A stretch of DNA of 64,000 nucleotides, from the NCBI GenBank assembly GCA_964648765.1, contig CAZYLF010000001.1:229797-293796 (forward strand), in the 5' to 3' direction. The notes below the pieces were generated by a model. That model was given only the letters and a program-made list of their open reading frames with translations. It was not told where the DNA came from and did not search any database. The translations under genes were made by a program, and so were the position numbers. Source of the DNA: an uncultured Candidatus Saccharibacteria bacterium. Lineage in GTDB: Bacteria; Patescibacteriota; Minisyncoccia; Phycocordibacterales; JACOZG01. This document shows positions 7,183 to 26,183 of this stretch, piece by piece (position 1 is the first letter of the stretch; each line of letters opens with the position of its first letter).

Positions 7183-7231
7183 CAAAAAAAGATCCCCGAC
7201 GGCGCGTACGCACCGTCGGGGATTCTCGTTT
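7183..7231. terminator. Bidirectional terminator, copy 1 of the palindromic repeat CCCCGACGG-N10-CCGTCGGGG
   Basis: A hairpin at 7194-7221 has an A-run upstream and a T-rich tract downstream. A near-identical sequence recurs at 8392-8421. Confidence 0.65.
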
Positions 7232-7235
7232 TGCA

Positions 7236-8297
7236 CTAATGGCCAAAAAATCCTCGGCCAAAAGTGTCAGGCATCATGAGGAGCTTAATCCTACGGGCGG
7301 TACAAAGATCAATTACTTTTTGATCATTTTTTGACCCGCTGGTGGTAAAAATCATTTCTACCCCGGCATCAATCAAATGTGCCACGGCATCATTAAATGG
7401 AAAGAATGAGTCGCTATACGCAACGGCACCTCTCATGTGGTGACCGGCGTCTTTTGCGATCATTACCGCAAGTTTAGCTGCCAGCTTCCTGCTTGTTTGC
7501 CCAGAGGCATTGGCGATGATCTGATCGTGCTTGGCAAGTGTGATGGTGTTACTTTTGCTGGTTGATCCAACGGCATAAGCCAGAAGGGCGTTTTTCATCA
7601 TATGTGGCTCAATCTTATCTACGCTGTGGTCAACGATTTCTGACATCATCCCTGGAATTGGGATAAAAGTAAAATTATCCTGCATCAATACTCCACCACG
7701 AACATGGCGAAGAAGACATTCTCGGTCTAAACTCTCCCGACTTAAATTCCGCAATGCTTCATTTTTGGCTAGTCTGGGACGTTTACCTGATTTGCTCTCA
7801 AGAATTTGTAGCACCTCGTCTCGGTCTTCAAAATCTGGAGCCACAACACATGAAAGCATTTTAGCTGCGCTCAAAGCCCTGGCCTCTTTTGGCGTGACTG
7901 TGAAGTTACAAATTACTCCACCACCAAAGATTGCTTCGCGGTCACCACTTAGCATGTGCCAGATTGCATCATACGCTTCGTGCGCTATGCCAGCTCCGCA
8001 CACAGTGCTATGCTTGGCACCTACGCAGATCAGTGGCATGGCATTGTAATTTGCATGCATCACAGCTCCAATTGTGGCGACGGTGCGTACCAGTGCATCA
8101 TGTTGGCATATGTCGTTGTACCCTAACGTCTCAAGACTGGGATGAAAAAGAAACTTACAAAACGAAAGTGGATCGTCATTTTCTCCTTCCGTTTCAAGAT
8201 GGAGAGTGGCCTGTTGTCGAGGGTTCTCACCGTATTTTAGTTTATGGGTTTTCCACCCCGGCTGAACCAACGTATGACCTTTTTCTTCATCTGCCAT
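7236..8297 (-). CDS. Stand-alone AICAR transformylase domain protein (PurH C-terminal domain homologue)
   Basis: The KYGENPRQ motif matches PurH LRYGENPHQ. The C-terminus SDSFFPFNDAV...GVEMIFTTSGSKNDQKVIDLC...RGFFGH matches the PurH C-terminus. No IMP cyclohydrolase (MGS) domain is present. GC content is visibly higher than in neighbouring genes. Confidence 0.7.
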   Translation of the reverse strand: MADEEKGHTLVQPGWKTHKLKYGENPRQQATLHLETEGENDDPLSFCKFLFHPSLETLGYNDICQHDALVRTVATIGAVMHANYNAMPLICVGAKHSTVCGAGIAHEAYDAIWHMLSGDREAIFGGGVICNFTVTPKEARALSAAKMLSCVVAPDFEDRDEVLQILESKSGKRPRLAKNEALRNLSRESLDRECLLRHVRGGVLMQDNFTFIPIPGMMSEIVDHSVDKIEPHMMKNALLAYAVGSTSKSNTITLAKHDQIIANASGQTSRKLAAKLAVMIAKDAGHHMRGAVAYSDSFFPFNDAVAHLIDAGVEMIFTTSGSKNDQKVIDLCTARRIKLLMMPDTFGRGFFGH

Positions 8298-8382: not shown

Positions 8383-8422
8383 CAAAAAAATCCCCCGACG
8401 GCGCGTACGCGCCGTCGGGGGA
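8383..8422 (-). terminator. Terminator, copy 2 of the palindromic repeat (perfect 13-bp stem CCCCCGACGGCGC/GCGCCGTCGGGGG)
   Basis: A perfect palindrome at 8392-8421 is followed by a T-run on the minus strand. It lies downstream of the 8436-8750 gene and upstream of the AICARFT gene. Confidence 0.55.
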
Positions 8423-8435
8423 TTGTGTCATCGGC

Positions 8436-8750
8436 CTAGTGGGCCGCAACTATCTGCTTTATGAGTTTGGAAAGTTGGTGGCAGATTTCATCTGTGGTTT
8501 CTTCGGGCATCGCTTTGAGCACCGGCTCAAGGGTTAGGCGGATACGGTGTATCAACCAGAGGGTTTCAGGATCGCCACCGCTTGTGCGATCCTCAAAGTG
8601 TTCTGGCATCTCAAAATACGAAGACAACATTCCCAGAAACAAGCATGCCTTTTTGATATTTGCTGGTAAGGCAAGCAGCTTCCTCATGTGCACATCATAC
8701 TCATCCAACGTCATACCACTTCGTTCTTCTGCCATTACAATTTCCCCCAA
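8436..8750 (-). CDS. Hypothetical protein
   Basis: A 104-aa ORF with a terminator immediately downstream. I recognise no motif. Confidence 0.4.
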   Translation of the reverse strand: MGEIVMAEERSGMTLDEYDVHMRKLLALPANIKKACLFLGMLSSYFEMPEHFEDRTSGGDPETLWLIHRIRLTLEPVLKAMPEETTDEICHQLSKLIKQIVAAH

Positions 8751-8821
8751 AATCGTTAATGTTCTATTGATGCGACGATCGCACCTTCTAAAAATAAAGC
8801 TTAGCCTTTATCTGGAGGAAG

Positions 8822-9181
8822 TCAAATTTTATGATCATTTACTTCTGGCCCGGCAAGTAAGTGAAGATGGAGGTGAGGCACACGCAAAAAATTCCCCGCG
8901 TTGAAGATCAGTTTAAAATCACTGATACTTTTTTCTATTGCGAGTTTGGCGGCGGTTAAGTTTAGCTTTCCAATTATCTCTGCATCCTCGTTGTTTGCCT
9001 CAGTGATAGAAACTATTAATTTTTTAGGAATGATTAACCAATGGGTAGAGGCAGCAGGGAACTTACTTTTAATTACGATCAAATCATTGTCTTCATAAAT
9101 AAATTCCGCCGGTTCCTCCTTATCAATAATTTTTTGGAATATCGTTTTCATAATTCTATTTAAAATCATGGCTATCGCCAC
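8822..9181 (-). CDS. HIT family (histidine triad) protein
   Basis: The histidine triad HLHLHLL lies near the C-terminus. Confidence 0.8.
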   Translation of the reverse strand: MAIAMILNRIMKTIFQKIIDKEEPAEFIYEDNDLIVIKSKFPAASTHWLIIPKKLIVSITEANNEDAEIIGKLNLTAAKLAIEKSISDFKLIFNAGNFLRVPHLHLHLLAGPEVNDHKI

Positions 9182-9791
9182 TTAACATTTTAATAAACTT
9201 TAAATTAAAGTTAGGTAAAATCCGCTGGCAAAAGTCTTGGGCAAAACTTGGGCCAATGCCGTCGTGCACACCGAAGGCGATTTGGGGTTTGAGTAAAATC
9301 GCGTAATCAATTGCCTGCGAGACCTTCATCCACGGTCCGGCCACGGGGAGAGCGAGTATCTCAACTTCACGATCGGGGTTGGTAAAAGCGTCGCCCGGGT
9401 ACCACAGTCTCCCGTCGATAAAGAATCCGATATTATCTGCCTGCGGCACCGATGAATGCATTTGAGCGTGCTTCTCGCCAATACCAACCACTCGGATTTC
9501 TCCTAGAGTAAAGTTCTGGTTGTGATCGATTTTCTCGTGAGCAATATTTTCTTTAGTTAAAAGCGCGCTCAGGGAATGATTGGTGTAAATTTTTACCTGG
9601 GGATTTTTAGTAAGTAAAATTTTAAGTGACTCAAGATGGTAGTGGTCTTGGTGCTCATGAGTAAATAAAATGTAATCCAAATTTTCAAGTTTGGAGTGAG
9701 CTTCCGCCGTATAAAACCCCGGGTCGGTGAGAATTCTCTTTCCTTTCGTTTCAATCAATAAACAGCAATGTCCAAATTTAGTAATTTTCAT
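9156..9791 (-). CDS. MBL-fold metallo-hydrolase
   Basis: The HEHQDH (HxHxDH) motif is present. The gene overlaps the downstream HIT gene by 26 nt, which suggests an operon. Confidence 0.8.
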   Translation of the reverse strand: MKITKFGHCCLLIETKGKRILTDPGFYTAEAHSKLENLDYILFTHEHQDHYHLESLKILLTKNPQVKIYTNHSLSALLTKENIAHEKIDHNQNFTLGEIRVVGIGEKHAQMHSSVPQADNIGFFIDGRLWYPGDAFTNPDREVEILALPVAGPWMKVSQAIDYAILLKPQIAFGVHDGIGPSFAQDFCQRILPNFNLKFIKMLSGDSHDFK

Positions 9792-9938
9792 GACCCTATT
9801 TTATCATATCTAAATTTTGAAGACTGAGCGTTGCCAAGTTACACAAAACATGATAGTCAGAAGATGGAAATAGACCAGTTGGTGTGCGCTGACTTGGTAA
9901 AATATTGATCATTGTTACTTAACCTAAGGAGTTTGATC

Positions 9939-10631
9939 ATGGCGAAAAAAGCCACAAAGGCTGCGAGAAAGACGTGTTCGGGTTTTAAGGCTGCGGATGT
10001 TAAGCGAACTTGCAAGCGTTTGAGCAGTCTTGGATTCTTCACGGTGGATAAGATTGAGGTCTATCAGGCGTTGGGCTCAGACCAATATCTTAAAGATACG
10101 GATATCTTACTTGGCCGTATGGCTGATTACTTGCTTCCGACAGATGGCTGGGACCTTAAAAGAATCATCTTGGCTGCGCCCAAAAGTAGTGATTTAGTGA
10201 AGCGAGCACAAAAAATGTTGACTAAGCTGGTCAGATCCGAACTGGAGAAGGACAAGAATCTCAGTGAACTCTACATTCTCCGCCAGAAGACAATCTCAGG
10301 TACAAAACTGGAGCAGGCTGTTGAAGAGAGAATTATTGCGATTTACCAGGAACAGATGGCGCGCATCAGGAGTGTTAAGGACGCCTTCTATTTTTGGTTT
10401 GGTCTGCGGGATGTGAACCCCCCAGCGGTTATCAAAACCGAGGCGGCGGAAACCTTTGTTCGCCAAATTCAGAAAGAGGTGGGAAGTGCTGACTTGGTTG
10501 AATGCTCCACTATGCTCAGTTGGGATCTCAGGATGATTGAGAAAGAGATACCGCCGAGTTGTGTGGCGGCACGGGCTACGGTGATTCGGCGTGTGGCTGA
10601 GCTCCTGCGTCCTTCAGAAAAAAAGAAGTAG
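9939..10631 (+). CDS. Hypothetical protein (basic N-terminus)
   Basis: An ATG at 9939 is preceded by AAGGAG at -8. The longer ORF listed in the track starts at TTG 9912. Confidence 0.5.
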   Translation: MAKKATKAARKTCSGFKAADVKRTCKRLSSLGFFTVDKIEVYQALGSDQYLKDTDILLGRMADYLLPTDGWDLKRIILAAPKSSDLVKRAQKMLTKLVRSELEKDKNLSELYILRQKTISGTKLEQAVEERIIAIYQEQMARIRSVKDAFYFWFGLRDVNPPAVIKTEAAETFVRQIQKEVGSADLVECSTMLSWDLRMIEKEIPPSCVAARATVIRRVAELLRPSEKKK

Positions 10632-10717
10632 TTTTGTTTTCAATATAATCGCCTCGAGGGTTTACTGTCGTAAGTTTACGGCGTCAAATCCCGGGGCGGT
10701 TTTTTATCTTGATATTA

Positions 10718-11092
10718 TTATTTAGTGCTTGCTGATTTTTTACTTACACGCTTTGGGGCTTTGGTTGTTGTAAGGTCAGCCTTAATGTTTTTCCAGTGGC
10801 GTTTGAGATCGCTAGCCAAAGACATTACCTCATTTGGGTCTAGAGATTTCAGCATTTTGTATTTGTTCATCACGGTATCAACAACGGCATAATAGCGATC
10901 CTCATTTACTTCCTTCAAATTCTCAAATTTCTCTAAAACTTCACCTTTAGCTTTAAGCATCCAACCCTTTATCACTTTACGATTTTTTGGCGCATCTTTG
11001 CTTCCGTAGAGAAAGTAGGCGGCGGCTAAAGTCACTAAAACTCCTGCGCCCACACCGGCAATTGTTGCATTATTGTTTGTTTCTTTCTTCAT
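10718..11092 (-). CDS. YtxH-like membrane-anchored protein
   Basis: An N-terminal TM helix with a glycine zipper is followed by a coiled-coil and a lysine-rich tail. Confidence 0.45.
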   Translation of the reverse strand: MKKETNNNATIAGVGAGVLVTLAAAYFLYGSKDAPKNRKVIKGWMLKAKGEVLEKFENLKEVNEDRYYAVVDTVMNKYKMLKSLDPNEVMSLASDLKRHWKNIKADLTTTKAPKRVSKKSASTK

Positions 11093-11336
11093 TTTTTATA
11101 TTTTTACGATTAAAAAATTTTTTAAAATTCATACCTTTTTCCTTTAACCATTTGTGAAATTTGCGAATGTCGTTAATTGCCTCTTCACCTTCTTGCCGAA
11201 TGCTGTGAGATAACATTACACCGTGACGTAAAATTCGAATTAGATAAATAAAAGCTATTACAACAACAACGGTGATTATTATCACCGCAATAGTTGATAC
11301 AAAAAAGAAAATATCAGATTTTAGTACTTCTGCCAT
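11070..11336 (-). CDS. Small membrane protein
   Basis: 88 aa with one hydrophobic helix and a basic tail. It overlaps the downstream gene by 23 nt. Confidence 0.4.
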   Translation of the reverse strand: MAEVLKSDIFFFVSTIAVIIITVVVVIAFIYLIRILRHGVMLSHSIRQEGEEAINDIRKFHKWLKEKGMNFKKFFNRKNIKNEERNKQ

Positions 11337-11441
11337 TAACCCACTCTAGCACACAATCTAAGTTGACGTGGGCGAAAAATTAAAGTACTTTCAATTGTAG
11401 TGTAGGTCTTCGAAAGACTTTTTTAACGAAAGGAGGTAATT

Positions 11442-12632
11442 ATGGGTTTTAAGTTCCGTTACCTTGATCCAGTGTATGCCGCGATTTTTAGTCGTCATGC
11501 AGTGCTTAGTGAACAAGAGACAAACACCCTTATTGATGAGTTCAAAAGAGCTAAATCCAAAACTAAAAAAGCAAAGTTAATGAATCTTTTAGTTTTGGGT
11601 CACCAGAGATTAGTCGCCTCCATTGCTTTGCGTTACTCGGGGCGCGGAGTCCCACCTGATGATCTTATTCAAGAGGGCAATTTTGGTTTGATGAGGGCAG
11701 TGGAAAAATTTAACTTCACAGAAGCAAAATTTTCTACTTATGCCAGTCTTTGGATTAGATCGAAGGTCCGTCGTGCTTTGATTAACCAAAACGGTAGCCC
11801 GTGTGGTGTGTCAGTTTACGGTTACTATAAATCACCCAGACCAATCCGTGGTGAGTTGTCAAATTGTAATCTTGTGCAAGATAAATCATCTGCTTTACCT
11901 GAAACAAACACTATCGCTCGTGAAGAGTTGGCAGAATGTACACTGAGGCTGAGTAATTTTTTGGGTCTTGTGGCGATAGTTCCGACTAAAGCCAAGTCAC
12001 TCAAGGCTTTCAGACTTTACTATGGGCTAGGGCAATTTAATCCTAGGGCGCATGAAGATGTTGGTAAGATCATGGGTGTAACTCGTCAGAGAGTAAGTCA
12101 GTGGAATGCTCGCACTTGGCACATGCTCACCGTGATGGGTAACACATACGATGATTTGAGTTTGAAGCGGGAGTTCAAAAAGTTTGAGGAGCTTCAAAGC
12201 CTTCTGGGGGAGTTTAAAAAACCAGGCTTGATCAAACCTAAAAAATTCTCTCGCGCTGAAAAGGCGGGAATTTTAAATCGCCTACTCACACTGAAATGGG
12301 GCAAGTCATCTCAGGGTGAGGTCTGGGTAATTGTGTGTGAAATCGCAGATGCATTTGGTGTTTTGCCCGAGGAAGTATATGGACCCGTGAAGGATACACA
12401 TAATCGATCTAAGTCCTGGGTAAGAAAAATCGCAATGTATCTAGTAAGACTTGACCTCGGTCTTACTTGTGAGCGAGTGGCACATTTACTCAGGCTCGGA
12501 AATCCTGGAAAAGTGTCGTCTGCTTTTAACCACTTAAAATCAGAAGTTGATTTTAAGCCTGATTTGGCAAAAAAGATCGAGGCAATCCGGCGAAAGTATC
12601 TGCCGTTGATTAAGAAAGGAGAAACAACCTAA
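11442..12632 (+). CDS. Sigma-70 family RNA polymerase sigma factor with C-terminal DnaA-domain-IV-like extension
   Basis: The RBS is AAGGAGG. Region 2 (DDLIQEGNFGLMRAVEKF...YASLWIRSKVRRAL) and region 4 (VGKIMGVTRQRVSQWNAR) are both recognisable. An extra ~150-aa tail contains KIAMYLVRLDLGLTCERVAHLL...KVSSAFNHLK, which resembles the DnaA C-terminal HTH. Confidence 0.75.
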   Translation: MGFKFRYLDPVYAAIFSRHAVLSEQETNTLIDEFKRAKSKTKKAKLMNLLVLGHQRLVASIALRYSGRGVPPDDLIQEGNFGLMRAVEKFNFTEAKFSTYASLWIRSKVRRALINQNGSPCGVSVYGYYKSPRPIRGELSNCNLVQDKSSALPETNTIAREELAECTLRLSNFLGLVAIVPTKAKSLKAFRLYYGLGQFNPRAHEDVGKIMGVTRQRVSQWNARTWHMLTVMGNTYDDLSLKREFKKFEELQSLLGEFKKPGLIKPKKFSRAEKAGILNRLLTLKWGKSSQGEVWVIVCEIADAFGVLPEEVYGPVKDTHNRSKSWVRKIAMYLVRLDLGLTCERVAHLLRLGNPGKVSSAFNHLKSEVDFKPDLAKKIEAIRRKYLPLIKKGETT

Positions 12633-12670
12633 ACCACCGACTTACTTGCGTAAGCCGGTGGTCTTTTTAT
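12632..12670 (+). terminator. Intrinsic terminator
   Basis: A 12-bp stem with one mismatch (CCACCGACTTAC/GTAAGCCGGTGG) is followed by TCTTTTT. Confidence 0.6.
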
Positions 12671-12683
12671 ATTTATTTAACTT

Positions 12684-13427
12684 TTACTTTCCGTCGTTTT
12701 TGAATCCAGCGTAAGCCTTCATGATTTCAAGTGGCACGGTGAAGACGATTGTGTTGGAAGCATCTGAAGAAATGTCATTGATGGATTGCAGTGTGCGCAA
12801 GTGGAGGGCTCCAGGCACAGCCGCAAGCATTTGGGCAGCCTCGGCCATATTTTTAGATGCTGCCAATTCTCCCTCAGAATTGATAATCACCGCGCGCTTC
12901 TCGCGTTCGGCCTCGGCTTGTTTGGCGATGGTGCGTTCCATATTTTCAGGTAAAGAAATATCTTTGAGTTCTACGTTGTTAACCTTTAAGCCCCAAGCTT
13001 CAGTCTCTTGGTCAACAATTTCTCTAATCCGATCGGCAATTTTGTCGCGACCAGCCAAAAGTTCATCGAGTGTAACTTCACCCACAATGTTTCGCATTGT
13101 GGTTTGGGCGTATTGCGAGATGGCATAATAAAAATTTTCAACTTCAATGATGGCCTTCTCCGCGGAAGCTACGCGATAATAAATTACGGCGTTCACGGTT
13201 ACAGAAACGTTATCACGCGTGATGGCGCGTTGGTCAGGCACGTCCACAGCCTTCACCCGCATGTCTACTTTGTGATAACTTTGGAAGACGGGAATTACTA
13301 AACGCCAACCAGGATTCATGATCCCGCTGTAGCGACCCATCGTAAACTTTACTCCGCGCTGATATTGATTAACTTGTCTTAAACTAATAAAAATTACAAA
13401 AACAATCGCGAAAATTAAATAAAACAT
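12684..13427 (-). CDS. SPFH/band-7 (stomatin/prohibitin-like) protein
   Basis: An N-terminal TM is followed by an SPFH core (YQRGVKFTMGRY...RDNVSVTVNAVIYYRV) and an EAE-rich coiled coil. Confidence 0.85.
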   Translation of the reverse strand: MFYLIFAIVFVIFISLRQVNQYQRGVKFTMGRYSGIMNPGWRLVIPVFQSYHKVDMRVKAVDVPDQRAITRDNVSVTVNAVIYYRVASAEKAIIEVENFYYAISQYAQTTMRNIVGEVTLDELLAGRDKIADRIREIVDQETEAWGLKVNNVELKDISLPENMERTIAKQAEAEREKRAVIINSEGELAASKNMAEAAQMLAAVPGALHLRTLQSINDISSDASNTIVFTVPLEIMKAYAGFKNDGK

Positions 13428-13462
13428 ATTCTGATATTAGCTTAAGTCGACGATATTTTCAA

Positions 13463-13494
13463 TAAAAAAAATGACCGAGCGCGCGGCTCGGTCG
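13463..13494 (-). terminator. Intrinsic terminator (module AAAAAAATGACCGAGC...GCTCGGTC), copy 1
   Basis: Stem GACCGAGC/GCTCGGTC with loop GCGCG is followed by a T-run on the minus strand. Confidence 0.6.
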
Positions 13495-13504
13495 GGGTGT
13501 TTTG

Positions 13505-13945
13505 CTAAATTAACTTACGCAACGCTTTTGTTGTTGATCTTACGGCTTTACGGAAACAGGGTTCACTGAAGCGGCACTGTGAGCAACCCGACACATCAGA
13601 AGCCTTTTTGTTTTTATATAGCCACGCACCAGGTGACCAGTGTCGATTTTCGTTGTAAACGAGTATCGGACCGCCCAGGATACTTACCGGGTACACATCC
13701 ACAATATTGTTGCTTTTGAGGAGCAGCCAAGAGTGATTGCAATTTGGGTAAAAGAAGCCATCTTTGACTTGGAGGTCAAACACTTTCCCCGTGGCCCTAG
13801 CCAAAATGTGACAAGACATGATTATCTTATTTCCGTTAGGATAATCTCCAAGTTCAAGATCGGGGAGTGCCTCAACCGCAGCGCGTATGCGTTTAAAAAT
13901 TTCAATATCAGCCTCCGGAATTCGTGACTGTATCCATGGTGTCAT
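13505..13945 (-). CDS. Hypothetical protein, small paralogous family (GGP[IP][LI][YV] motif) member 1
   Basis: The RBS is AGGAGGTG. The segment HSWLLLKSNNIVDVYPVSILGGPILV aligns with HTFLQLDNNLIVDITADQYGGPPIYV of the 14517-14876 gene. Confidence 0.5.
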   Translation of the reverse strand: MTPWIQSRIPEADIEIFKRIRAAVEALPDLELGDYPNGNKIIMSCHILARATGKVFDLQVKDGFFYPNCNHSWLLLKSNNIVDVYPVSILGGPILVYNENRHWSPGAWLYKNKKASDVSGCSQCRFSEPCFRKAVRSTTKALRKLI

Positions 13946-14007
13946 TCCACACCTCCTTTCTAAAATTTAAACTACTCCTTCTTAGAAAAATGTAAAGGAT
14001 TTAGTGA

Positions 14008-14040
14008 TAAAAAAATGACCGAGCTGCGCTAGCTCGGTCG
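14008..14040 (-). terminator. Intrinsic terminator, copy 2 of the TGACCGAGC module
   Basis: Stem GACCGAGCT/AGCTCGGTC is followed by a T-run. It shares the AAAAAAATGACCGAGC...GCTCGGTCG flanks with copy 1. Confidence 0.6.
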
Positions 14041-14194
14041 AGAGTTACTTCTTTTTCGGTTTTGGTTTAATTCTCCGTCTTATTGACCTGGTTTTTTTCT
14101 TGAGTGGTTTTCGTAAGCAGAGGGGATTATTTTCCTCATTCCATTTTCTCTGCCATATTTCCATGATCTGAGTTACTGTAAGCATCAGTGTCTC

Positions 14195-14461
14195 CTAAAA
14201 AATACCCTTTAATTTGTTATGGTGAAAGACTTGGCGTCCATCCCAAACCCCACAACCCACAGCCGCTGTCTCACAAAAACGATCTTCACCACTTGTGGGG
14301 TCTAGATGATATCCAGCATGCACCAAACCTCCTCGGCTTGGCTCGGCAACATACTGGCCAATAAATATCGGTCCACCGCATATGATACATTTTTCTCGCC
14401 GATACCAAGGAGTGGATTTACAGAGTTTTCGCGCCCGCCATTTTCTTACCCATTTAAACAT
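14195..14461 (-). CDS. Small Cys-rich hypothetical protein (possible zinc ribbon)
   Basis: The start is ATG 14461 with AGGAGG 8 nt upstream, not the longer 14593 start in the track. The protein reads MFKWVRKWRARK...CIICGGP...CETAAVGCG. Confidence 0.5.
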   Translation of the reverse strand: MFKWVRKWRARKLCKSTPWYRREKCIICGGPIFIGQYVAEPSRGGLVHAGYHLDPTSGEDRFCETAAVGCGVWDGRQVFHHNKLKGIF

Positions 14462-14472
14462 TACTATCCTCC

Positions 14473-14521
14473 TAAAAAGTGCCTCAACTTTTATCATATC
14501 CCACCCTTTATAATTTTCAAT
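14473..14521 (-). promoter_or_regulatory. Promoter/5'UTR module copy 1 (TTGAAA-N16-TATGAT then conserved leader and RBS)
   Basis: Read on the minus strand it gives TTGAAAATTATAAAGGGTGGGATATGATAAAAGTTGAGGCACTTTTTAGGAGG-ATG. An approximately 49-bp direct repeat recurs at 14895-14943. Confidence 0.5.
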
Positions 14522-14876
14522 ATTTTCGATAGGGCGGGGTGATTGGTCCAACGTAGATTGGAGGACCGCCATATTGGTCGGCCGTGATATCAACTATTAG
14601 ATTGTTATCAAGTTGCAAGAAGGTGTGCGACTCATCAGCGTATTTACCTTTGATTATTTCTCCTTTTTTGAATAGGTGTTTAAGATAAACCGAGGCTAAT
14701 CCGCAATTTAGATTTGGGAACATCTTTTGTGCTCTAGTGACAAACTCTCGCGGATTTTTCAGCCGGTTATAACTTTGGTATAAATCGATCAATAACTTGG
14801 TATCGAGCGCTCCATTCTCAAAATCCTGTCGAGTTTTCGTCGCAATCAATCTTACCTCATTTATTTGTTTGGACAT
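14517..14876 (-). CDS. Hypothetical protein, small paralogous family member 2
   Basis: An internal ATG at 14876 follows AAGGTGG. The longer ORF start at 14909 lies inside the repeated leader. It is a paralogue of the 13505-13945 gene. Confidence 0.5.
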   Translation of the reverse strand: MSKQINEVRLIATKTRQDFENGALDTKLLIDLYQSYNRLKNPREFVTRAQKMFPNLNCGLASVYLKHLFKKGEIIKGKYADESHTFLQLDNNLIVDITADQYGGPPIYVGPITPPYRKY

Positions 14877-14894
14877 ATACCACCTTACTTTCTG

Positions 14895-14943
14895 TAAAAA
14901 GTGCCTCAACTTTTATCGTATCTCACCCTTTATAATTTTCAAT
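14895..14943 (-). promoter_or_regulatory. Promoter/5'UTR module copy 2
   Basis: Read on the minus strand it gives TTGAAAATTATAAAGGGTGAGATACGATAAAAGTTGAGGCACTTTTTA. It differs from copy 1 at 3 positions. Confidence 0.5.
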
Positions 14944-14982
14944 GATTTAACGCGTCAAAGTTTCTTTTCAGCACTTTTTGAT

Positions 14983-15240
14983 TTAATTACCCCTCGCTAC
15001 GCTCAGAGTGACAATACAATTTTCCACTGCATCTTCTTTGGAGGGGAAGTACTCCTCAAAAGTCTCTGCCCTCCAGTGCCAAGATTTAGTTGTAGGACTA
15101 TACGTACTCCAACTTAGGCACTTTAGTTCTTGGTCGTAGGCATCACTGCCCAAGGGTTGGACTTTCTGAGACTTGCGCCAAAAATAGCCTGTTGTACTCA
15201 GCAAAATGATAACTAAAATTATCAAAATCTTATTTAGCAT
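14983..15240 (-). CDS. Small secreted/membrane-anchored hypothetical protein
   Basis: 85 aa with an N-terminal hydrophobic helix (ILIILVIILLSTTGYF). Confidence 0.4.
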   Translation of the reverse strand: MLNKILIILVIILLSTTGYFWRKSQKVQPLGSDAYDQELKCLSWSTYSPTTKSWHWRAETFEEYFPSKEDAVENCIVTLSVARGN

Positions 15241-15379
15241 GAAATGATATTACCACAGGAATGATCCGATAAAAATACTAGGGCTCTTGAGAGTAATCTG
15301 ATCCTAGTCCTATTACCCTGTTAGGTTTTTATGTGGTTTAACAAAAAAGTTACGTTTTGAATATATTAATTTAGTAGAA

Positions 15380-15736
15380 TCATTTACTGTATAACAGGTA
15401 TGCATGTTTTATAAGTATGTTGTTTATTTGAGCATTTTGTAGTTCCATACTTCCGTGTTCAATAGAGAAAGTACTTTTTATGTTTTTGATAAAGTCATCT
15501 TTGGAATCCAGTAAAACAATTCTGGATAGGTCTCTAAGTTCGTTAGGATTTAGATTTTTTCTGAAGACATTAGCTATCTGGGATAAATCTTCTTGTGTGT
15601 CCAAATTAGAACCACCGATCACAACATCCCACAATGCGTTATCATCTCTTTTAACAATAATAAAAGTAGAAATATCCTTAGTGTTTCTAATTTCACTTAA
15701 GGAAGAACTGAGTTTGTTGATTATTTCTTTTTCCAT
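15380..15736 (-). CDS. Hypothetical protein, downstream partner of HEPN-like gene
   Basis: A 118-aa ORF begins 5 nt after the HEPN-like gene ends. It carries no MNT GSxxRG motif. Confidence 0.45.
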   Translation of the reverse strand: MEKEIINKLSSSLSEIRNTKDISTFIIVKRDDNALWDVVIGGSNLDTQEDLSQIANVFRKNLNPNELRDLSRIVLLDSKDDFIKNIKSTFSIEHGSMELQNAQINNILIKHAYLLYSK

Positions 15737-15740
15737 TTAA

Positions 15741-16157
15741 TTATATTTCTTTCCACAAATACCTCGCTATCCGCTGAGCTGATTTGACCGCCCCACTGGC
15801 TTGGCTGAGCATCATTTTACCCTTAATCGGAGCGTAACGCATTTCAGGATTCCACTGCAACAATATACTCCAGTCAGCTAGATAAGTGCTTTTTATCTTA
15901 TTGCCAATATGCGGCGGAACTTGTTTTAAAAGTTCTTCAAGATTATGAGTCTTTATCCTGGCCACAGCGTTAAACTCTTCATTAGTGTGAGGAATGCCAG
16001 ACAGGCAAATATTTTTACAAATTATTGCCTTTAAAGCTATTTCAATTGCGTATCCGGAGATATACAAAGACCCCTCATACGATTTGTTCTTGAGTAGAAT
16101 TTTTGAGTCTTTGATGCGAGCCCTGGATATTTTATCTAACTCTTGAGTGGATATCAT
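15741..16157 (-). CDS. HEPN-like domain protein
   Basis: 138 aa, all alpha-helical. SYEGSLYISGYAIEIALKAIICK matches the HEPN helix-1/2 pattern, and ARIKTHNLEEL gives an R-x3-HN motif, which is imperfect against Rx4-6H. Confidence 0.45.
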   Translation of the reverse strand: MISTQELDKISRARIKDSKILLKNKSYEGSLYISGYAIEIALKAIICKNICLSGIPHTNEEFNAVARIKTHNLEELLKQVPPHIGNKIKSTYLADWSILLQWNPEMRYAPIKGKMMLSQASGAVKSAQRIARYLWKEI

Positions 16158-16177
16158 GGATTCATTAACTCTCTTGC

Positions 16178-16615
16178 TTAGCGAACCCGTCTTACTTGTA
16201 CAGTTTCGCTCATACCATCTACACTTAGCTCTGTACCATTAATACCGTCAATAACCGTCGCTTCTGGTCTATAGGCGTAATGGTAACTGTATTTGTATTC
16301 AGACTGTTCCCAGATGGTACCATTTTGAAATTCAAATTTTGCATCTTGAAAAAAACCTTTGAAATCAGAGACAATGGGGCCACTCTGAAGCTTGCTTACA
16401 CGGATTACTTCAATAGGTGGGCAACCACTAATCTGGACCTCCAATACCCATTTTCCCGCAGATTTATAAATGCGCACATATGGACGATATGCATATTTGT
16501 ACATGTATTTATAACGCCTTTGCTGCCACACCTGCCCATTGGTCAAATTAAAAACAGCCCCACCGTTAAAACCAGTGAATGCCCCAGAAATCTGACTATT
16601 AATTTCTTGGTCCAT
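16178..16615 (-). CDS. Hypothetical protein with two tandem ~60-aa repeats (F.F.NG.[VI]W.Q..YKY.Y.YAYRP)
   Basis: The internal duplication is visible directly in the translation. Confidence 0.5.
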   Translation of the reverse strand: MDQEINSQISGAFTGFNGGAVFNLTNGQVWQQRRYKYMYKYAYRPYVRIYKSAGKWVLEVQISGCPPIEVIRVSKLQSGPIVSDFKGFFQDAKFEFQNGTIWEQSEYKYSYHYAYRPEATVIDGINGTELSVDGMSETVQVRRVR

Positions 16616-16639
16616 TTTTATAGATTATATCAAAATATT

Positions 16640-16930
16640 AAGTAATAAATGGCCCGCACAAAGCAAGGATATCTTTGTAAAGTTTTTCGAGTGTGACATG
16701 GCTTAACTGCCGGCCAGGACTCTCCCGCGCCTCTTGTCTCGCCGCCGCTCGACTCGGGCTGGGCACCGCCTCGCGAATTTATTTGCTAATAAATTAACGC
16801 TCCGGCGTCCTCGTCCCTGGCGCGAGTGAAGCAGTTCACTCGCTGCCGGCAGTTATCCGCTACGCTCCTAACTGGGGCTCTTGTCTGACGTTAGAACCCT
16901 TTTACTACAAGGTGAGAGCGAGTTTTATTA
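16640..16930. ncRNA. GC-rich, ORF-free, highly structured region; candidate structured RNA of unknown class
   Basis: GC content is well above the ~40% background. A perfect 9-bp hairpin GCGAGTGAA/TTCACTCGC sits at 16821-16842. An AT hairpin AATTTATT/AATAAATT is also present. CTTAACTGCCGGCC (16698-16711) pairs with GCTGCCGGCAGTTA (16844-16857) over long range. No ORF of 60 aa or more is present. Confidence 0.4.
16703..16720. repeat. Direct repeat of the tRNA-Gln 3' end (CTGCCGGCCAGG-ACTC); candidate att site
   Basis: A 12-nt exact match plus ACTC to the plus-strand sequence 26113-26131 (CTGCCGGCCAGGGACTC), which forms the 3' acceptor/T-arm of tRNA-Gln. Confidence 0.45.
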
Positions 16931-16957
16931 TCGTTGCCCAGCATTTGCTATGCAGAG

Positions 16958-17476
16958 CTAAACACCTTTAACCCCACTCTGCTTTTCACTATTGTTCAAG
17001 GTGGCGTTTATTTTCTCCAAGAGTTCACTCGTATTGAAACGTCCGTGATTTTCCAATCTCAATAACGGCAACCCTGCATCTTTGAGCACTCGTTCAACTT
17101 CAACATCTCGGCCCTTGCGGTCCTGCCTCTCGTGCGTGCGGTCATCAAGTTCTATTGCGAGTTTCGGTGAGAGGTATGACTTATCGCACAAAACAAAATC
17201 CACTGATTTCTGGCTTATATGCCGAAAAGCTCCTCGCCAATTTTGCCCCACAACTTTATTGTCTACGATGGATGGAAGATGGACCTGTGGAAAGATGAGA
17301 TATTTTTCTCCCACTGCGACGACAAGAGCATCGTAGCACTCGTGTTCAGCACGAGACATAAAAAAGTTTTTCTGCTTGTATTTATATTTCCGTGGCTCAT
17401 CCACTTTGCCTCGTAAAATCTCTACGAGAACGCCGATGACCACAATGACTGCAACAATAATGAGTATCTTTATCAC
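16958..17476 (-). CDS. DUF2726-like (NERD/restriction-endonuclease-like fold) protein with N-terminal TM
   Basis: The segment FVLCDK...LAIELDDRTHERQDRKGRDVEVERVLKDAGLPLLR resembles the DUF2726 core. Confidence 0.55.
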   Translation of the reverse strand: MIKILIIVAVIVVIGVLVEILRGKVDEPRKYKYKQKNFFMSRAEHECYDALVVAVGEKYLIFPQVHLPSIVDNKVVGQNWRGAFRHISQKSVDFVLCDKSYLSPKLAIELDDRTHERQDRKGRDVEVERVLKDAGLPLLRLENHGRFNTSELLEKINATLNNSEKQSGVKGV

Positions 17477-17523
17477 AAAGACATTTTAACTTATTTTGAT
17501 GATTTACCCCACCCTCGCTCTCA

Positions 17524-18165
17524 CTATAAACTTTGGTATGCCTCTACTTGCTGGTTGTATTCGTATTGGACCATCTGATAATTGGTTCCCCATTTTTGTT
17601 TTGCTTTCGCCATAATATCTGGGTATTTTGTCTGTGCCATTATCCATTCATACGCTTCTACCTGTTGATTGTATTCATACTGGACCATTTGGTAGTTGTT
17701 GCCCCACTTCTGCTTTGCCTTAGCCATTATGTCGGGATACTTTGTTTGAGCCACTACCCAGTCGTATGCTTCAACCTGCTGGTCATACTCGTATTTAACC
17801 ATCTGATAGTTATCGCCCCATTTTGCCGAAGCATTTGATTTCAAAACCACAAGAACGCTGGCTCTGTCTGATTGTGTCGCTGGTGCTGGAGTTGGTGTGG
17901 GAGCTGGGGTCGTCGGCACTGTTGCAGGTTTGGGAGTTGTCTTTGGGGTTTGCTTAACTGGAGCAACTGCTTCTGTGGTTTTAACAGCTTCTGCCGTTTT
18001 TTGATTTTCTACTGGAGCTGGCGTTGTTGTTTCAGATGCCACTTGTGAACTGGTGCTATCGCCACCCAACGAACCAAGAAAGCCGAGGAAAATAATAATG
18101 GCGAGAGTAATGAACCACCATCGCTTGTAAAAAGGTTTCTTTGCTTTGTTGATTTGTGTGTCCAT
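17524..18165 (-). CDS. Membrane-anchored repeat protein (Pro/Thr-rich linker + 3 tandem 33-aa repeats AKAKQKWGxNYQMVQYEYNQQVEAYEWIMAQTKYPDIM)
   Basis: An N-terminal TM is followed by a PT-rich low-complexity linker and three near-identical repeats. Confidence 0.55.
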   Translation of the reverse strand: MDTQINKAKKPFYKRWWFITLAIIIFLGFLGSLGGDSTSSQVASETTTPAPVENQKTAEAVKTTEAVAPVKQTPKTTPKPATVPTTPAPTPTPAPATQSDRASVLVVLKSNASAKWGDNYQMVKYEYDQQVEAYDWVVAQTKYPDIMAKAKQKWGNNYQMVQYEYNQQVEAYEWIMAQTKYPDIMAKAKQKWGTNYQMVQYEYNQQVEAYQSL

Positions 18166-18189
18166 ATTTTTATAAAGTTATTTTAATAA

Positions 18190-19245
18190 TTATTGGCACT
18201 GCGGACTTTTAGTTCTTGATGGATACGCGGCTAAAAGAGCATCCAACGTGTCGTAGGATTTCAAATAGCTGGCACTCAAACTTTTCCATCCATCGCACGC
18301 TTCTGGGTAGTAGTATTTTGAGCTGTAATATGAGGACGTATAAAACTTTCCAGTTGATTGCGTAGTAGCTGGAGGGGCTGTCTGGGTGCTTGTGTTTGAG
18401 CTTGTCGTGTCTCCATTACAAGTAGTCGGGGACCAAAGACCCAACTGGGCTGTCTGTGCGGATTTTTGTGCCGTCTTAAACTCCGCTTGGTATTTGTAAG
18501 GAGTGTTGTAGGTGTACTCGTGAGCATACCCCTGCTCAATCATAGATTTGTTGTAGAAAAGCCCGTCATCCCGATAGACATAGGCAAGGAGGCGGTCATA
18601 CTTATCTCTCTCGCCTTGAGTTGGGTCTATTTCTATCCGCACCTTTTTTCCAGAGAGCAATTCTTTTCCTTTGTTTGATGCCTCTTTACCGAAACACTGA
18701 ACGGGCTTTCTTGGGTCCACTGTCTCTGGTGTATCCAATCCGATGAGGCGTAGCGTTTCCACTTTCCCATTCATACTGATTTTAATCGTGTCTCCGTCTA
18801 CAACTTCTGTAACAGAGTAGTAGGTATATTGAGACGAAGATGGCTGTGCGGTTGCAGGTTTGGTCGTAACTACTGGTGTCTCCGTCTTTGCTTGCGTTAC
18901 GGCAGGAGCTGGAGCATTAGGAGTTGTTGTAGCAGTATCTATTGGGTTTGGTGCAACATTATTTTGGCTCTGCGTCTGTGTTGAGATGACATTATCTGCC
19001 ACCTGCGTAGGCGTAGTGTTTCCAGAAATCAATAAAATGGCAGAGAAAAAAGTGATGAGACAGAGAGCTCCTGTCGCTGTGTATTTCCAGCTTTTCTTAT
19101 CTATGAGCTTGTAAGCAACGAACGCTCCTACTGCATACACTATCGTATTGGGTAAAGCGATGATTGCGATTATAAAAATGATGAGGGCGATACCCATCTG
19201 GTATCCAGTGGAGAGTGCTTTATATTTTGAGATTATATTTTTCAT
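18190..19245 (-). CDS. Membrane-anchored secreted thermonuclease (SNase/micrococcal nuclease family)
   Basis: The C-terminal domain LRLIGLDTPETVDP...CFGKEAS...GKKVRIEIDPTQGERDKYDRLLAYVY matches the SNase fold with catalytic D/E/R residues. A Thr-rich linker and TM helix precede it. The start is taken at the internal ATG 19245 before the TM helix. The ORF extends to 19395. Confidence 0.7.
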   Translation of the reverse strand: MKNIISKYKALSTGYQMGIALIIFIIAIIALPNTIVYAVGAFVAYKLIDKKSWKYTATGALCLITFFSAILLISGNTTPTQVADNVISTQTQSQNNVAPNPIDTATTTPNAPAPAVTQAKTETPVVTTKPATAQPSSSQYTYYSVTEVVDGDTIKISMNGKVETLRLIGLDTPETVDPRKPVQCFGKEASNKGKELLSGKKVRIEIDPTQGERDKYDRLLAYVYRDDGLFYNKSMIEQGYAHEYTYNTPYKYQAEFKTAQKSAQTAQLGLWSPTTCNGDTTSSNTSTQTAPPATTQSTGKFYTSSYYSSKYYYPEACDGWKSLSASYLKSYDTLDALLAAYPSRTKSPQCQ

Positions 19246-19525
19246 AGTAATAGTAATAAAAAATCGCCCTAATAGTTTGGGCAATTTGTTTTTTTCCAAC
19301 AAAAAGCCCATCACAAGGAAGGTCCTTTCGGATACCTCTGCACGAGTTTCCCCGTGCAACGACGTGAACGCCCTTATGATGGGTTCTCTGTTCACGTCGT
19401 TTTATGACCATATCTCAAGAAAATCTCTTGAGGGTTAGGTCCCACTGCATATTCAGTTGTGCCTACATTTAACCACACTTCTTATCAATTTCAAAGAAAA
19501 ATGATAGGATGCTGTTACTATTACT

Positions 19526-20260
19526 ATGACAATTACGATTGAAGAAAAGTTCATAAAGGATGCACGCTTGATATTGGACGAGCTCCAAGCGGAGCTTATA
19601 GCTTCCAAAGACGGCATCATACGTTACCTTTTTATAAAGGAAGACAAAGCACCCAACGAGCGAGAGCAGAGACGTATCATTCGTTGGCTTATAAACGCAG
19701 GGGCACTTCAATCTATTGGAGAAATACACGAAGACCTACCATCTATTTTTGTTACGCTTAATCCATTCGTTAAAACTGCTACTATCGGATTTCGGTTAGG
19801 TATAGATAAAACACTTTTTGCCGAGGTGAGAAAAATCTGCGAAAGTGATTTGAGTAAAAAATCAGCCAAAGAACTTTTGGACCAAGTAGAAACACTGGGC
19901 AGAGCGAAACGCCTTGAAACTCAAAAACTAACGGAGCCAGAGAAAGTCGTCATCAAACCATTTCTTGATGAACCAAGTAAGACAGTCATTCTTGCTGGAA
20001 AAAAATCTACAATCCCCGTTGGCAATCAGTGGGTTTTATGCAAAGAGCTTTTTAATAAACCAGCAAGCGATTGGGTGAAAGAAAATGATGTGGTCCACCT
20101 TTTTAACAAAGACGGCAAGCAGAGTTTCTACGATGCACAGCGTCTACTCAATGCTCGCATAGAAAAAGATTTGGGCATAAAGGATTTCATTGAATATGAG
20201 ACAGCTATGGCGAGGATAAACCCAAAAACGATTGAAAAACTGAACCATTCAGAAAAATAG
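19526..20260 (+). CDS. Hypothetical protein
   Basis: A 244-aa ORF. It is the first plus-strand gene of the element after a divergent intergenic region. Confidence 0.5.
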   Translation: MTITIEEKFIKDARLILDELQAELIASKDGIIRYLFIKEDKAPNEREQRRIIRWLINAGALQSIGEIHEDLPSIFVTLNPFVKTATIGFRLGIDKTLFAEVRKICESDLSKKSAKELLDQVETLGRAKRLETQKLTEPEKVVIKPFLDEPSKTVILAGKKSTIPVGNQWVLCKELFNKPASDWVKENDVVHLFNKDGKQSFYDAQRLLNARIEKDLGIKDFIEYETAMARINPKTIEKLNHSEK

Positions 20261-20309
20261 AGATTTCTGACTCACGAATGAGTCAAACGAACACAGGTAC
20301 GCTCAAGGC

Positions 20310-20663
20310 GTGCCTTTTTCGTTCCCAAAAATTGCACACATTATTAGCCAATATCCAATTACAATGACCAACAAAAAAACCAAAAGGTCATCAACAACCG
20401 ATGGACAAAAAGAAGCTCCGCCAAATGACCCCACGGCGGTGTTCACTACTTATGACCTCGGTGTATCCACCGCACTTTTGTGTGCGGATTTTGAGCTTGT
20501 CTCGGTAGACAAAGAGAACCCACGAAAAGCATTATTCATCTTCAAGAAAGCAGACGGCATTGAAGATGTTGCGAACCGATACTTTTCGGACAGGTTAGAA
20601 GTCAAAGCAAGGTCGTTCTTTGACCATCTCAAAGCTCTCAAGAATAAGCTTTATTCCGAGTAG
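20310..20663 (+). CDS. Hypothetical protein
   Basis: A GTG start at 20310. An alternative ATG lies at 20364. Confidence 0.4.
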   Translation: MPFSFPKIAHIISQYPITMTNKKTKRSSTTDGQKEAPPNDPTAVFTTYDLGVSTALLCADFELVSVDKENPRKALFIFKKADGIEDVANRYFSDRLEVKARSFFDHLKALKNKLYSE

Positions 20664-20665
20664 CT

Positions 20666-20851
20666 ATGCAGTTAGCGGATGAACATATCAAAGAGTTTCA
20701 GGTGCTCTACAAAAAGCACTACGGCGTTGAAATAAGCACTGCCGAAGCTCTGGAAAAAGGCATACGTCTCATCCGCTTGATGGAGATTGTTTTGAAGCAC
20801 GAAGCAAAGAAACAAGCGACACAGACGGTCCCAACTCCGATTACCAATTAA
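20666..20851 (+). CDS. Small hypothetical protein (61 aa, helical)
   Basis: The ORF is tightly packed between its neighbours. Confidence 0.35.
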   Translation: MQLADEHIKEFQVLYKKHYGVEISTAEALEKGIRLIRLMEIVLKHEAKKQATQTVPTPITN

Positions 20852-20861
20852 AAAAATAATT

Positions 20862-23051: not shown

Positions 23052-23055
23052 CACT

Positions 23056-23634
23056 ATGGAAGAAACATCACAAAAACAAATTGATGCCAACCGAGAGAAC
23101 GGCAAGAAAGGCGGAGTGAAGACCGACGAGGGCAAAGCTGTGAGCAAATATAACGCTATCAAACACGGTATTTTGAAAGAGGTCGTCTCTGATTACGAGC
23201 AGAGTTTCTACGAGGACATTATCGAACGTCTCAATGACCAATTCAGCCCCGTAGGAGTGCTTGAGAAGATGCTCGTGGACCGAGTGGGTGTGTATTACCT
23301 CAAGCTCTACCGAGTAGCAAAGGCAGAGAATGAGTATATGCAGTCGGTCCTCAATCCGAGAAAGGTTACAGTCAGAGACACCCTTGATATTGGGATGAAC
23401 TACACTGAAACCATAATAGAAAATGAGGGCTACATTCCAAAGGTCGGTTTGGGTCCAGTAGAAAAACTCTCCGACACTTATCTCCGCTACGAAATAGCGA
23501 TTGAGAACAGATTGTACAAAGCACTTCACGAACTCCAACGATTACAGTCAGCAAGAAATGGTGAAAAGGTCCCACCCCCATTAGCATTAGATATTGATGT
23601 GTCAGGAGAAAAGGAAAATGGGTTCGTTTCGTAA
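23056..23634 (+). CDS. Hypothetical protein
   Basis: A 192-aa ORF placed 4 nt after the primase stop. Confidence 0.45.
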   Translation: MEETSQKQIDANRENGKKGGVKTDEGKAVSKYNAIKHGILKEVVSDYEQSFYEDIIERLNDQFSPVGVLEKMLVDRVGVYYLKLYRVAKAENEYMQSVLNPRKVTVRDTLDIGMNYTETIIENEGYIPKVGLGPVEKLSDTYLRYEIAIENRLYKALHELQRLQSARNGEKVPPPLALDIDVSGEKENGFVS

Positions 23635-23773
23635 AAGTGAAAAACGCCATCCGTATTTGGTGTATTCACTCAAAAAGACGAAAAAAGCTCTCAACACAAA
23701 CGTAAAATGTCGGTTTTATTAGGGAAAATAGGGTAACAATCTCAAATGATTTCGGCAATTTATTTCCAAAACT

Positions 23774-24370: not shown

Positions 24371-24519
24371 TGCTTATGTTGTCCCAGTTAGTAATTGTTT
24401 TGCCAGAGGTTTTTTATTGCAAAATGGAACCCGAGAGGGGCGTTCTGCCAACTATTTTGCAGTCCTCTGGATTACACTTATAGCTGGGACAACCAGAGCG
24501 TCCCTTTCGGGTTTTTAAT

Positions 24520-26172: not shown

Positions 26173-26183
26173 ACGAGCCGGCA
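26113..26183 (-). tRNA. tRNA-Gln (anticodon CUG)
   Basis: The minus-strand sequence TGCCGGC-TC-GTCT-AATGGTA-GGAC-A-CATCC-CTCTGGA-GGATG-GTAT-TGGGG-TTCGAGT-CCCTG-GCCGGCA-G folds as a cloverleaf. It has a U1-A72 pair, U8, GG in the D-loop, a TTCGAGT T-loop and a G73 discriminator. CCA is not encoded. Confidence 0.75.

Follow-up and report, generated by a model that had tools for sequence, protein, structure and literature searches.

In a 64,000-nt stretch of an uncultured Candidatus Saccharibacteria genome (contig CAZYLF010000001.1 of assembly GCA_964648765.1, positions 229,797 to 293,796 of the forward strand; hereafter the window, in whose numbering positions are given), two small minus-strand genes each lie exactly between two near-identical copies of a regulatory sequence. 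The gene for a YunG-like protein of 119 amino acids (aa) is bracketed by two promoter-like modules, A and B (a 422-bp unit), and the gene for a 146-aa protein is bracketed by two terminator copies of ~32 nt, T1 and T2 (a 544-bp unit). This bracket geometry is the new point here, and a modest curiosity. We read the locus as a short run of small minus-strand accessory genes that reaches from a Band_7 gene to a HEPN gene pair, the 119-aa and 146-aa proteins as cytoplasmic, and the brackets as the footprint of single-gene insertion or local copying in which the regulatory junction of the recipient was duplicated; taken as a whole, we judge this explanation to be evenly balanced between right and wrong.

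Near-identical regulatory repeats bracket two small genes

In minus-strand order, the locus comprises an 85-aa membrane open reading frame (ORF), module A, the YunG-like gene, module B, a Cys-rich 88-aa gene, a 46-aa ORF, T1, the 146-aa gene, T2 and the promoter of the Band_7 gene. Two Logan contigs, from at least four sequencing runs, match the window at 100% over 8395-23945, and because these independent assemblies are identical the locus is not an artefact of a single assembly; all contigs found to carry these exact proteins are likewise identical to the window. The window was taken to be part of a Patescibacteria (Candidate Phyla Radiation, CPR) chromosome. Its G+C content is ~43%, it contains a LOOT RNA, an S-adenosylmethionine (SAM) riboswitch and a single tRNA-Gln, and the homologues of the locus proteins include sequences named Woesebacteria, Pacebacteria, Parcubacteria and Saccharibacteria, among others.

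A repeat search of the window returned a 54-nt direct repeat (14473-14526 and 14895-14948) whose copies are 93% identical and 422 nt apart. Its 48-nt core, TTGAAAATTATAAAGGGTG[A/G]GATA[C/T]GATAAAAGTTGAGGCACTTTTTA, has two matches in the window and none in 100 shuffles, in agreement with the initial annotation, made from the sequence alone, which had described a near-identical promoter and 5' untranslated module before two small genes; the core differs at 2 positions between the copies, and not at 3 of 49 as counted there. Either half of the module is found at these two sites only. In a pairwise alignment, identity extends from ATTGAAAAT to CACTTTTTA, with sharp edges and with flanks that are unrelated on both sides.

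Read on the minus strand, both copies have the form TTGAAA-N16-TA(C/T)GAT. Module A (14895-14948), upstream of the YunG-like gene, has its -35 hexamer TTGAAA at 14942-14937, a 16-nt spacer, the -10 hexamer TACGAT at 14920-14915 and the leader AAAAGTTGAGGCACTTTTTA, while module B (14473-14526), upstream of the Cys-rich gene, has TTGAAA at 14520-14515, TATGAT at 14498-14493 and the same leader. Within 18-25 nt downstream of either module stand a Shine-Dalgarno sequence and an ATG (AAGGTGG…ATG at 14876 and AGGAGG…ATG at 14461). From these sequence features we infer that the modules act as promoter plus leader. The leader RNA gave folding z-scores of +0.48 and -0.51, neither significant, and an Rfam scan of 13000-17500 returned nothing at E<=1. 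An RNA element in the leader or the locus was dropped on these grounds, and a promoter role at the DNA level would fit better, since the leader has neither a significant fold nor an Rfam match.

The modules were also considered as coding sequence. The reading frame of the 88-aa ORF continues without a stop through module B, which accounts for the 125-aa product given by gene callers. Both core differences in module A break that frame (TGG to TGA and ATG to ACG), and a coding role was rejected given the strong AGGAGG-N6-ATG at 14461 and the position of module A in non-coding DNA. On the other side of module B, the last three codons and the stop of the YunG-like ORF fall within the module, the stop being the TGA inside TTGAAA.

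Exact-match scans of public collections gave no match to a 23-mer of the leader in GTDB representative genomes, to a 21-mer of the module in JGI metagenomes or to a 24-mer from the 5' half of the module in IMG/VR. The same 24-mer has one match in JGI, probably due to chance, within a 66-aa ORF of a marine contig that is AT-rich and whose flanking sequence is unrelated; six IMG/VR matches to a 19-mer of the module all represent one phage terminator with unrelated flanks and were counted as chance as well. The modules occur only at this locus in the window and have no true exact copy in these collections; syntenic, conserved housekeeping orthologues, which the initial annotation had named together with such confinement as grounds against its reading, were not found.

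The second pair of repeats consists of intrinsic terminators on the minus strand. T1 (14009-14040) reads CGACCGAGCT-AGCGC-AGCTCGGTC followed by a T7 run and ends the unit of the 88-aa gene and the 46-aa ORF; T2 (13465-13494) resembles it and reads CGACCGAGC-CGCGC-GCTCGGTC followed by a T8 run. The hairpin GACCGAGC-loop-GCTCGGTC at 13473-13493 and 14017-14039 has these two matches in the window and none in shuffles, and its arms are shared together with the T run; the two terminators have in common the exact 16-mer GCTCGGTCATTTTTTT within the shared sequence CGACCGAGC…GCTCGGTCATTTTTTT, so that the shared terminator module of the initial annotation holds. Both terminators are strong, with folding energies of -15.1 and -16.4 kcal/mol (z about -5) and a U run after each, and the module was seen nowhere else in the window.

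Removal of the 422-bp unit would leave one promoter before the Cys-rich operon, and removal of the 544-bp unit would leave one terminator before the Band_7 promoter, a promoter-like site (TTGAAA-N17-TAATAT) that stands directly after T2. The Cys-rich operon begins with the 88-aa gene (14195-14461, minus strand; CxxC…H…H…C…C), whose AGGAGG lies 6 nt before its ATG. The 46-aa ORF behind it (14045-14185, minus strand) encodes a very basic C-terminus, has an AGGAG ribosome-binding site of its own and is probably co-transcribed with the 88-aa gene. At the other end of the locus, the 85-aa ORF (14983-15240, minus strand) encodes a hydrophobic N-terminus, predicted to be a membrane anchor; a terminator-free interval of 35 nt separates its stop codon from module A downstream.

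Similar arrangements occur independently in other Patescibacteria loci. In locus L019 (Saccharibacteria metagenome-assembled genome, contig CAYIFM010000008.1), an orthologue of the 146-aa protein is encoded between 33-nt direct repeats (3570-3602 and 4066-4098; 88% identical, 496 nt apart). Each repeat comprises the stop codon and the terminator hairpin of the upstream gene and a TTGACA, and the ORF of the family member ends inside the second copy. A further 5' leader occurs twice in this locus, at 4383 and 6828. In locus L004, the orthologue of the 146-aa protein and a gene 1.85 kb upstream share a promoter-like module of ~50 nt (1349-1440 and 3200-3290). Nearby pairs of near-identical promoter- or terminator-like modules were further observed in L012 (8040/9595), L013 (4862/7846), L014 (822-940/1608-1730) and L027 (9698/11254); in L004 and these four loci, the paired modules stand before or behind different genes.

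The window itself has a second pair of look-alike terminators (7185-7221 and 8384-8420; 37 nt, 89% identical), which brackets a purH-like gene (7236-8297), so that reuse of terminators extends beyond the accessory locus. Exact direct repeats of 16 nt or more, spaced by 100-3000 nt and with both copies outside long ORFs, were counted crudely: Patescibacteria loci totalling 320 kb have 17 such intergenic pairs, and 150 kb of Escherichia coli K-12 has 3, one of the three being a tRNA duplication. This local density is ~3x that of the E. coli control; given the small sample, selected around a single gene family, it shows only that the phenomenon is not unique to the locus.

Two distantly homologous Cys-His-Asp protein families

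The YunG-like gene (14517-14876, minus strand) has at least 178 homologues at 44-58% identity, a lower bound for the family, in Patescibacteria, DPANN-type archaea and even Bradyrhizobium. Among 30 aligned sequences, including the window protein, C58, G59, H84, D96, I97, T98, D100, Q101, G103, G104 and P105 are invariant. The protein has the YunG core NCG…H[TS]F…D[IV]T.DQ.GGP over ~115 aa; 18 of the 30 aligned homologues match the YunG family PF24585 at E<=0.01 (best E 6.8e-8), and several cluster representatives among the homologues carry a precomputed PF24585 assignment. Because its close homologues match this model, the 119-aa protein was assigned to YunG by transitivity, as a divergent member. 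It is in the same length class as YunG (PF24585) and Phage_YunG-like (PF24591) and has the same NCG…HTF…DITADQYGGP motifs, whereas the 146-aa protein matches neither model and is linked to them via profile-profile comparison only. Literature searches on YunG found no published function.

The closest homologues of the 119-aa protein on long contigs (L003 and L010/L011; 53-56% identity) are encoded in archaeal, DPANN-type neighbourhoods with MCM, eRF1, PCNA, GINS and eIF genes, and such relatives in archaeal context suggest inter-domain transfer of this small gene.

The 146-aa gene (13505-13945, minus strand) belongs to a large family without a Pfam model. While a word-indexed search returned 11 relatives, an exhaustive search with a hidden Markov model (HMM), as the initial annotation had proposed, found 848 cluster representatives at E<=1e-3 and 361 at E<=1e-10; the clusters are drawn at 50% identity, and 848 is a lower bound. 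No member matches any Pfam family, and the family is so far found almost only in Patescibacteria. In an alignment of 73 members, His71-Ser-Trp (HSW, 71-73) and Asp83 are invariant, and Ser44-Cys45-His46 and the Gly-Pro of the GGP motif are nearly so.

The two proteins are related, if distantly. BLASTP aligns them at 39% identity over 31 residues (E 3e-4), across the motif quoted in the initial annotation. A shallow comparison of the two family profiles is weak (probability 7.9%), and hhalign with a deeper alignment of the 146-aa family against the YunG-like family gives a probability of 67.8% (E 4.9e-5) over 63 columns at about 22% identity, pairing C45 with C58, H71 with H84, D83 with D96 and GGP with GGP (146-aa and 119-aa protein, respectively). 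Among all ORFs of the window, each family HMM ranks the other protein second-best, and there is no third member. Cross-phylum and archaeal relatives of each protein, at 44-61% identity, are far closer to it than the two are to one another. We conclude that the 119-aa and 146-aa proteins are distant homologues in one superfamily and not recent local paralogues; the relatedness claimed in the initial annotation stands, and its picture of a fast-evolving local family does not.

Both AlphaFold models are confident (pLDDT 95.5 and 88.9) and have a predicted core in common, in which Cys stands at the start of a helix, His on the second strand of the next hairpin and Asp on the following strand, before the GGP turn. 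In the 119-aa model, C58 starts helix 58-69, H84 is in strand 82-88 and D96 is in strand 93-96; in the 146-aa model, C45 starts helix 45-55, H71 is in strand 69-75 and D83 is in strand 81-83. A Cys at a helix N-terminus, packed against a sheet that bears His and a third polar residue, is the papain-like arrangement, here seen in predicted models only, and both models may tentatively be placed in a fold class with a minimal papain/NlpC-P60/transglutaminase-like layout. The pattern C..[AL]…H[ST][WF]…D also resembles what we take to be the transglutaminase-core motif, a resemblance that served as a lead and not as a test. Profile searches against PDB sequences gave no relevant match to a solved member, and a match to the C-terminal domain of MutL (E 0.0038) was judged spurious, as it covers columns outside the core.

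We suggest a role for both proteins as small thiol-dependent hydrolases or transferases with an intracellular substrate. They share residue order and structural setting with papain-like NlpC/P60 and transglutaminase-core enzymes such as E. coli MepS/Spr, but are much smaller, have an N-terminal helical bundle and lack a signal peptide. Neither protein has a signal peptide or a hydrophobic N-terminus, and for want of a signal peptide a cell-wall substrate is unlikely.

The other products of the locus gave few matches. The Cys-rich 88-aa protein was unrelated to either family according to the initial annotation, and it is indeed an orphan, as a homologue search returned only the protein itself; against phage records, tblastn gave only matches at E>=0.02 to mycobacteriophage hypothetical proteins. 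For the 146-, 119-, 88- and 46-aa products there was no PADLOC or NCBIfam match, and the only PHROG match was a weak one of the 88-aa product to a family of unknown function (phrog_1581, E 0.0032). Across 18 GTDB loci and 8 other contigs, no neighbour recurs and there is no synteny with the window, and in 22 other loci the second family is never within 8 kb of the first. This absence of conserved synteny for either family, together with the apparent end of an integrated element at tRNA-Gln ~1.5 kb away, makes accessory status plausible, as the initial annotation had suggested.

Origin of the brackets

In the explanation that we prefer, an incoming gene would have been inserted, or copied locally, and the regulatory junction of its neighbour duplicated in the process. 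This could have come about by Campbell-type recombination of a small circle carrying the gene and a copy of the module, or by template switching at a terminator hairpin. As a result, the incoming gene and the resident gene downstream would both keep a promoter, and the upstream and incoming units would both keep a terminator, and later recombination between the repeats could excise either gene cleanly and leave one intact module. The mechanism of insertion and its direction, that is, which gene is the newcomer, we infer from the geometry, and either of the two mechanisms fits.

Several results weigh against this explanation or its parts. Insertion, its direction and its recency are read from one genome, all matching contigs being identical. 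Direct repeats of 30-54 nt far exceed classical target-site duplications in length, and no recombinase could be tied to them. Since a housekeeping gene, purH, is bracketed too, the pattern may reflect general local copying or gene conversion of regulatory hairpins and not insertion; such repeats accompany the 146-aa family in 4 of ~19 loci, which is not clearly above the background repeat density. Promoter-like hexamer pairs are not enriched in the region (21 found, 19.3 expected), and for this reason the promoter call rests on position and near-consensus sequence. With respect to the proteins, the 119-aa sequence scores 20.1 bits against PF24585 (E 7.4e-4) and does not reach the gathering score of 27 bits, and Foldseek searches of the PDB and BFVD returned nothing significant (best E 0.2-0.7, TM score 0.3-0.37), the top weak matches for both models being NlpC/P60 peptidases, for example MepS/Spr.

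The modules might instead be alike owing to shared regulation, with both promoters under one operator, AAAAGT-N6-ACTTTT, that overlaps the predicted start site; in that case, the YunG-like gene and the Cys-rich operon would answer jointly to one repressor or dedicated sigma factor, and selection and/or gene conversion would keep the copies identical. A 6+6 inverted repeat does stand just after the -10 hexamer in the module, and the pattern occurs three times in the window at up to one mismatch (0.59 expected), both perfect copies being the two modules; in addition, a gene 2 kb away encodes a sigma-70 family protein that carries a DnaA-C-like helix-turn-helix domain as an extra part. We nevertheless consider shared regulation rather unlikely, as selection for an operator would keep ~18 nt and not 47/49 including the spacer, the sharp repeat edges look like those of a copy event, the module has no linked regulator, the 64 kb contain no further perfect operator copy, and the terminator pair is left unexplained. 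An operator could account for part of the conservation of the module. It is quite improbable that module and hairpin are dispersed repeats of the miniature inverted-repeat transposable element (MITE) or repetitive extragenic palindromic (REP) type, which spread on their own and have the genes between them as bystanders: each repeat type has exactly two copies in 64 kb, which are neighbours 0.4-1.2 kb apart, neither terminal inverted repeats nor target-site duplications surround the modules, and no true copies came up when GTDB genomes, JGI metagenomes and IMG/VR were scanned for exact matches. The near-identical terminator pair around the purH-like gene would fit such dispersal, as would the finding that intergenic repeat pairs are not rare in Patescibacteria.

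The initial annotation had proposed a hypervariable array of toxin/immunity or effector-like cassettes built from fast-evolving paralogues. In its favour, the genes are small, with expression signals of their own, one of them encodes an orphan Cys-rich protein, and their neighbours include a HEPN gene, a DUF2726 gene and an integrated element. This proposal is largely refuted, and we give it very little credence: conservation of both family proteins across phyla is good (44-61% identity), none of the three genes has a PADLOC, Pfam, NCBIfam or PHROG match to toxins, immunity or defence, there are no secretion signals, no partner recurs and the families are never together in the 22 other loci, and the identical contigs present no strain variation. 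An integron-like array with the repeats as attC-type sites would account for short repeats between single genes and for terminator repeats that are hairpins, yet it is hardly credible here, given that the neighbouring genes scanned include no tyrosine (IntI-type) recombinase, the only recombinase being a large serine recombinase ~10 kb away. Moreover, GTTGAGG in the module fails the GTTRRRY core (G where Y is required), the module is promoter-like whereas integron cassettes are promoterless, and the perfect GC stems with T runs have the look of ordinary intrinsic terminators.

Patescibacteria may also gain and lose single genes more generally through duplication of a regulatory junction, a 'scarless' route; we regard this proposal as doubtful. 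A direct repeat of 30-55 nt would either come in on both sides of the new gene or be created by its arrival, so that both genes are correctly expressed and precise deletion remains possible later. The two Cys-His-Asp genes described here, YunG-like and 146-aa, would then count among such single-gene cassettes. The two bracketed genes of this locus, the bracketed orthologue in L019, the shared module in L004 and the ~3x repeat density relative to E. coli lend support to such a route. To our knowledge, Patescibacteria genomes are tiny and have few recognizable mobile elements, and their acquisition of accessory genes is poorly understood. If the proposal is true, genes could be plugged in simply and without a recombinase, leaving the expression of their neighbours undisturbed and a sequence footprint that is open to systematic search. 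In addition, a large unnamed family, that of the 146-aa protein, is linked to the uncharacterized YunG, and both acquire a testable hypothesis as Cys-His-Asp thiol enzymes. If neither idea holds, the locus consists of ordinary small hypothetical genes and one recent local duplication.

A probable integrated element nearby, and known single-gene systems

To the right of the locus, the gene for a large serine recombinase of 550 aa (24520-26172) overlaps tRNA-Gln (26112-26183, minus strand) at the 3' end of the tRNA. A copy of this tRNA end at 16707-16722 (plus strand; CTGCCGGCCAGG(-)ACTC, 12+4 nt, the tRNA itself reading CTGCCGGCCAGG(G)ACTC) is the putative left junction, and 16707-26183 is a probable integrated element of ~9.4 kb at tRNA-Gln. 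Its cargo includes a Toprim primase (20862-23051), a DUF5659 gene, an SNase nuclease (18190-19395), a DUF2726 gene (16958-17476), the LOOT RNA and a membrane protein resembling superinfection-exclusion proteins (17524-18165). The primase, like both families of the locus, has no IMG/VR relatives, and a viral origin was dropped on these grounds. Between the locus and the element are a gene for a 145-aa repeat protein and a HEPN gene with its 118-aa partner; the locus may plausibly be an older islet at the same tRNA hotspot.

The 342-nt intergenic stretch at 16616-16957, which holds the tRNA-end repeat and a second CTGCCGGCAG, has 50% G+C, compared with 31-43% in neighbouring spacers, and no Rfam match at E<=1. 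Within the element, the LOOT RNA (RF03000, 72 bits; 19319-19441, minus strand) is at the divergent junction, where the SNase ORF as listed overlaps it with its 5' end; a literature search on this RNA found nothing usable. The membrane protein, of 213 aa, matches phage superinfection-exclusion families at its N-terminus, and its gene contains three 114-nt tandem coding repeats (17536-17824; 75-79% identity). The HEPN gene (138 aa; PF05168 at 2e-7, with weak matches to AbiV and PDC-M28A) and the 118-aa gene that follows 4 nt on (G+C 0.31, with a faint MComp1 match) occupy 15380-16157 on the minus strand and could be a two-gene defence or toxin-antitoxin-like pair.

On the left side of the locus, the sigma-70 family protein (11442-12632, plus strand; regions 2 and 4) has a C-terminal extension weakly like the helix-turn-helix of DnaA domain IV (PF08299, E 0.0088); this fusion, encoded next to the locus, is an unusual one. 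Farther away, two very long plus-strand ORFs with internally repeated domains (52.7-57.07 kb, 4,269 nt; 57.9-64.0 kb, more than 6,099 nt and off the window edge) probably encode giant surface proteins.

Among known systems, integron cassettes are similar to the locus in that single-gene units are separated by short repeats, some of them hairpin-forming; the locus differs in having neither IntI nor an attC core and in that its units are not promoterless. Prophage morons, known from the lambdoid phages, are autonomous promoter-gene-terminator units inserted between phage genes. Like them, the locus has small genes of unrelated function, with a sigma-70-type promoter-like site, a factor-independent terminator or both, next to genes of a mobile element. 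Unlike them, it stands outside the apparent attachment (att) boundary of that element, and no phage structural genes or viral relatives were found; we also know of no description of morons that are bracketed by duplicated copies of a neighbour's regulatory DNA. Of these flanking signals, a promoter-like module and T1 accompany the unit of the 88-aa gene and the 46-aa ORF, T2 but no clear promoter accompanies the 146-aa gene, and module A but no terminator accompanies the YunG-like gene.

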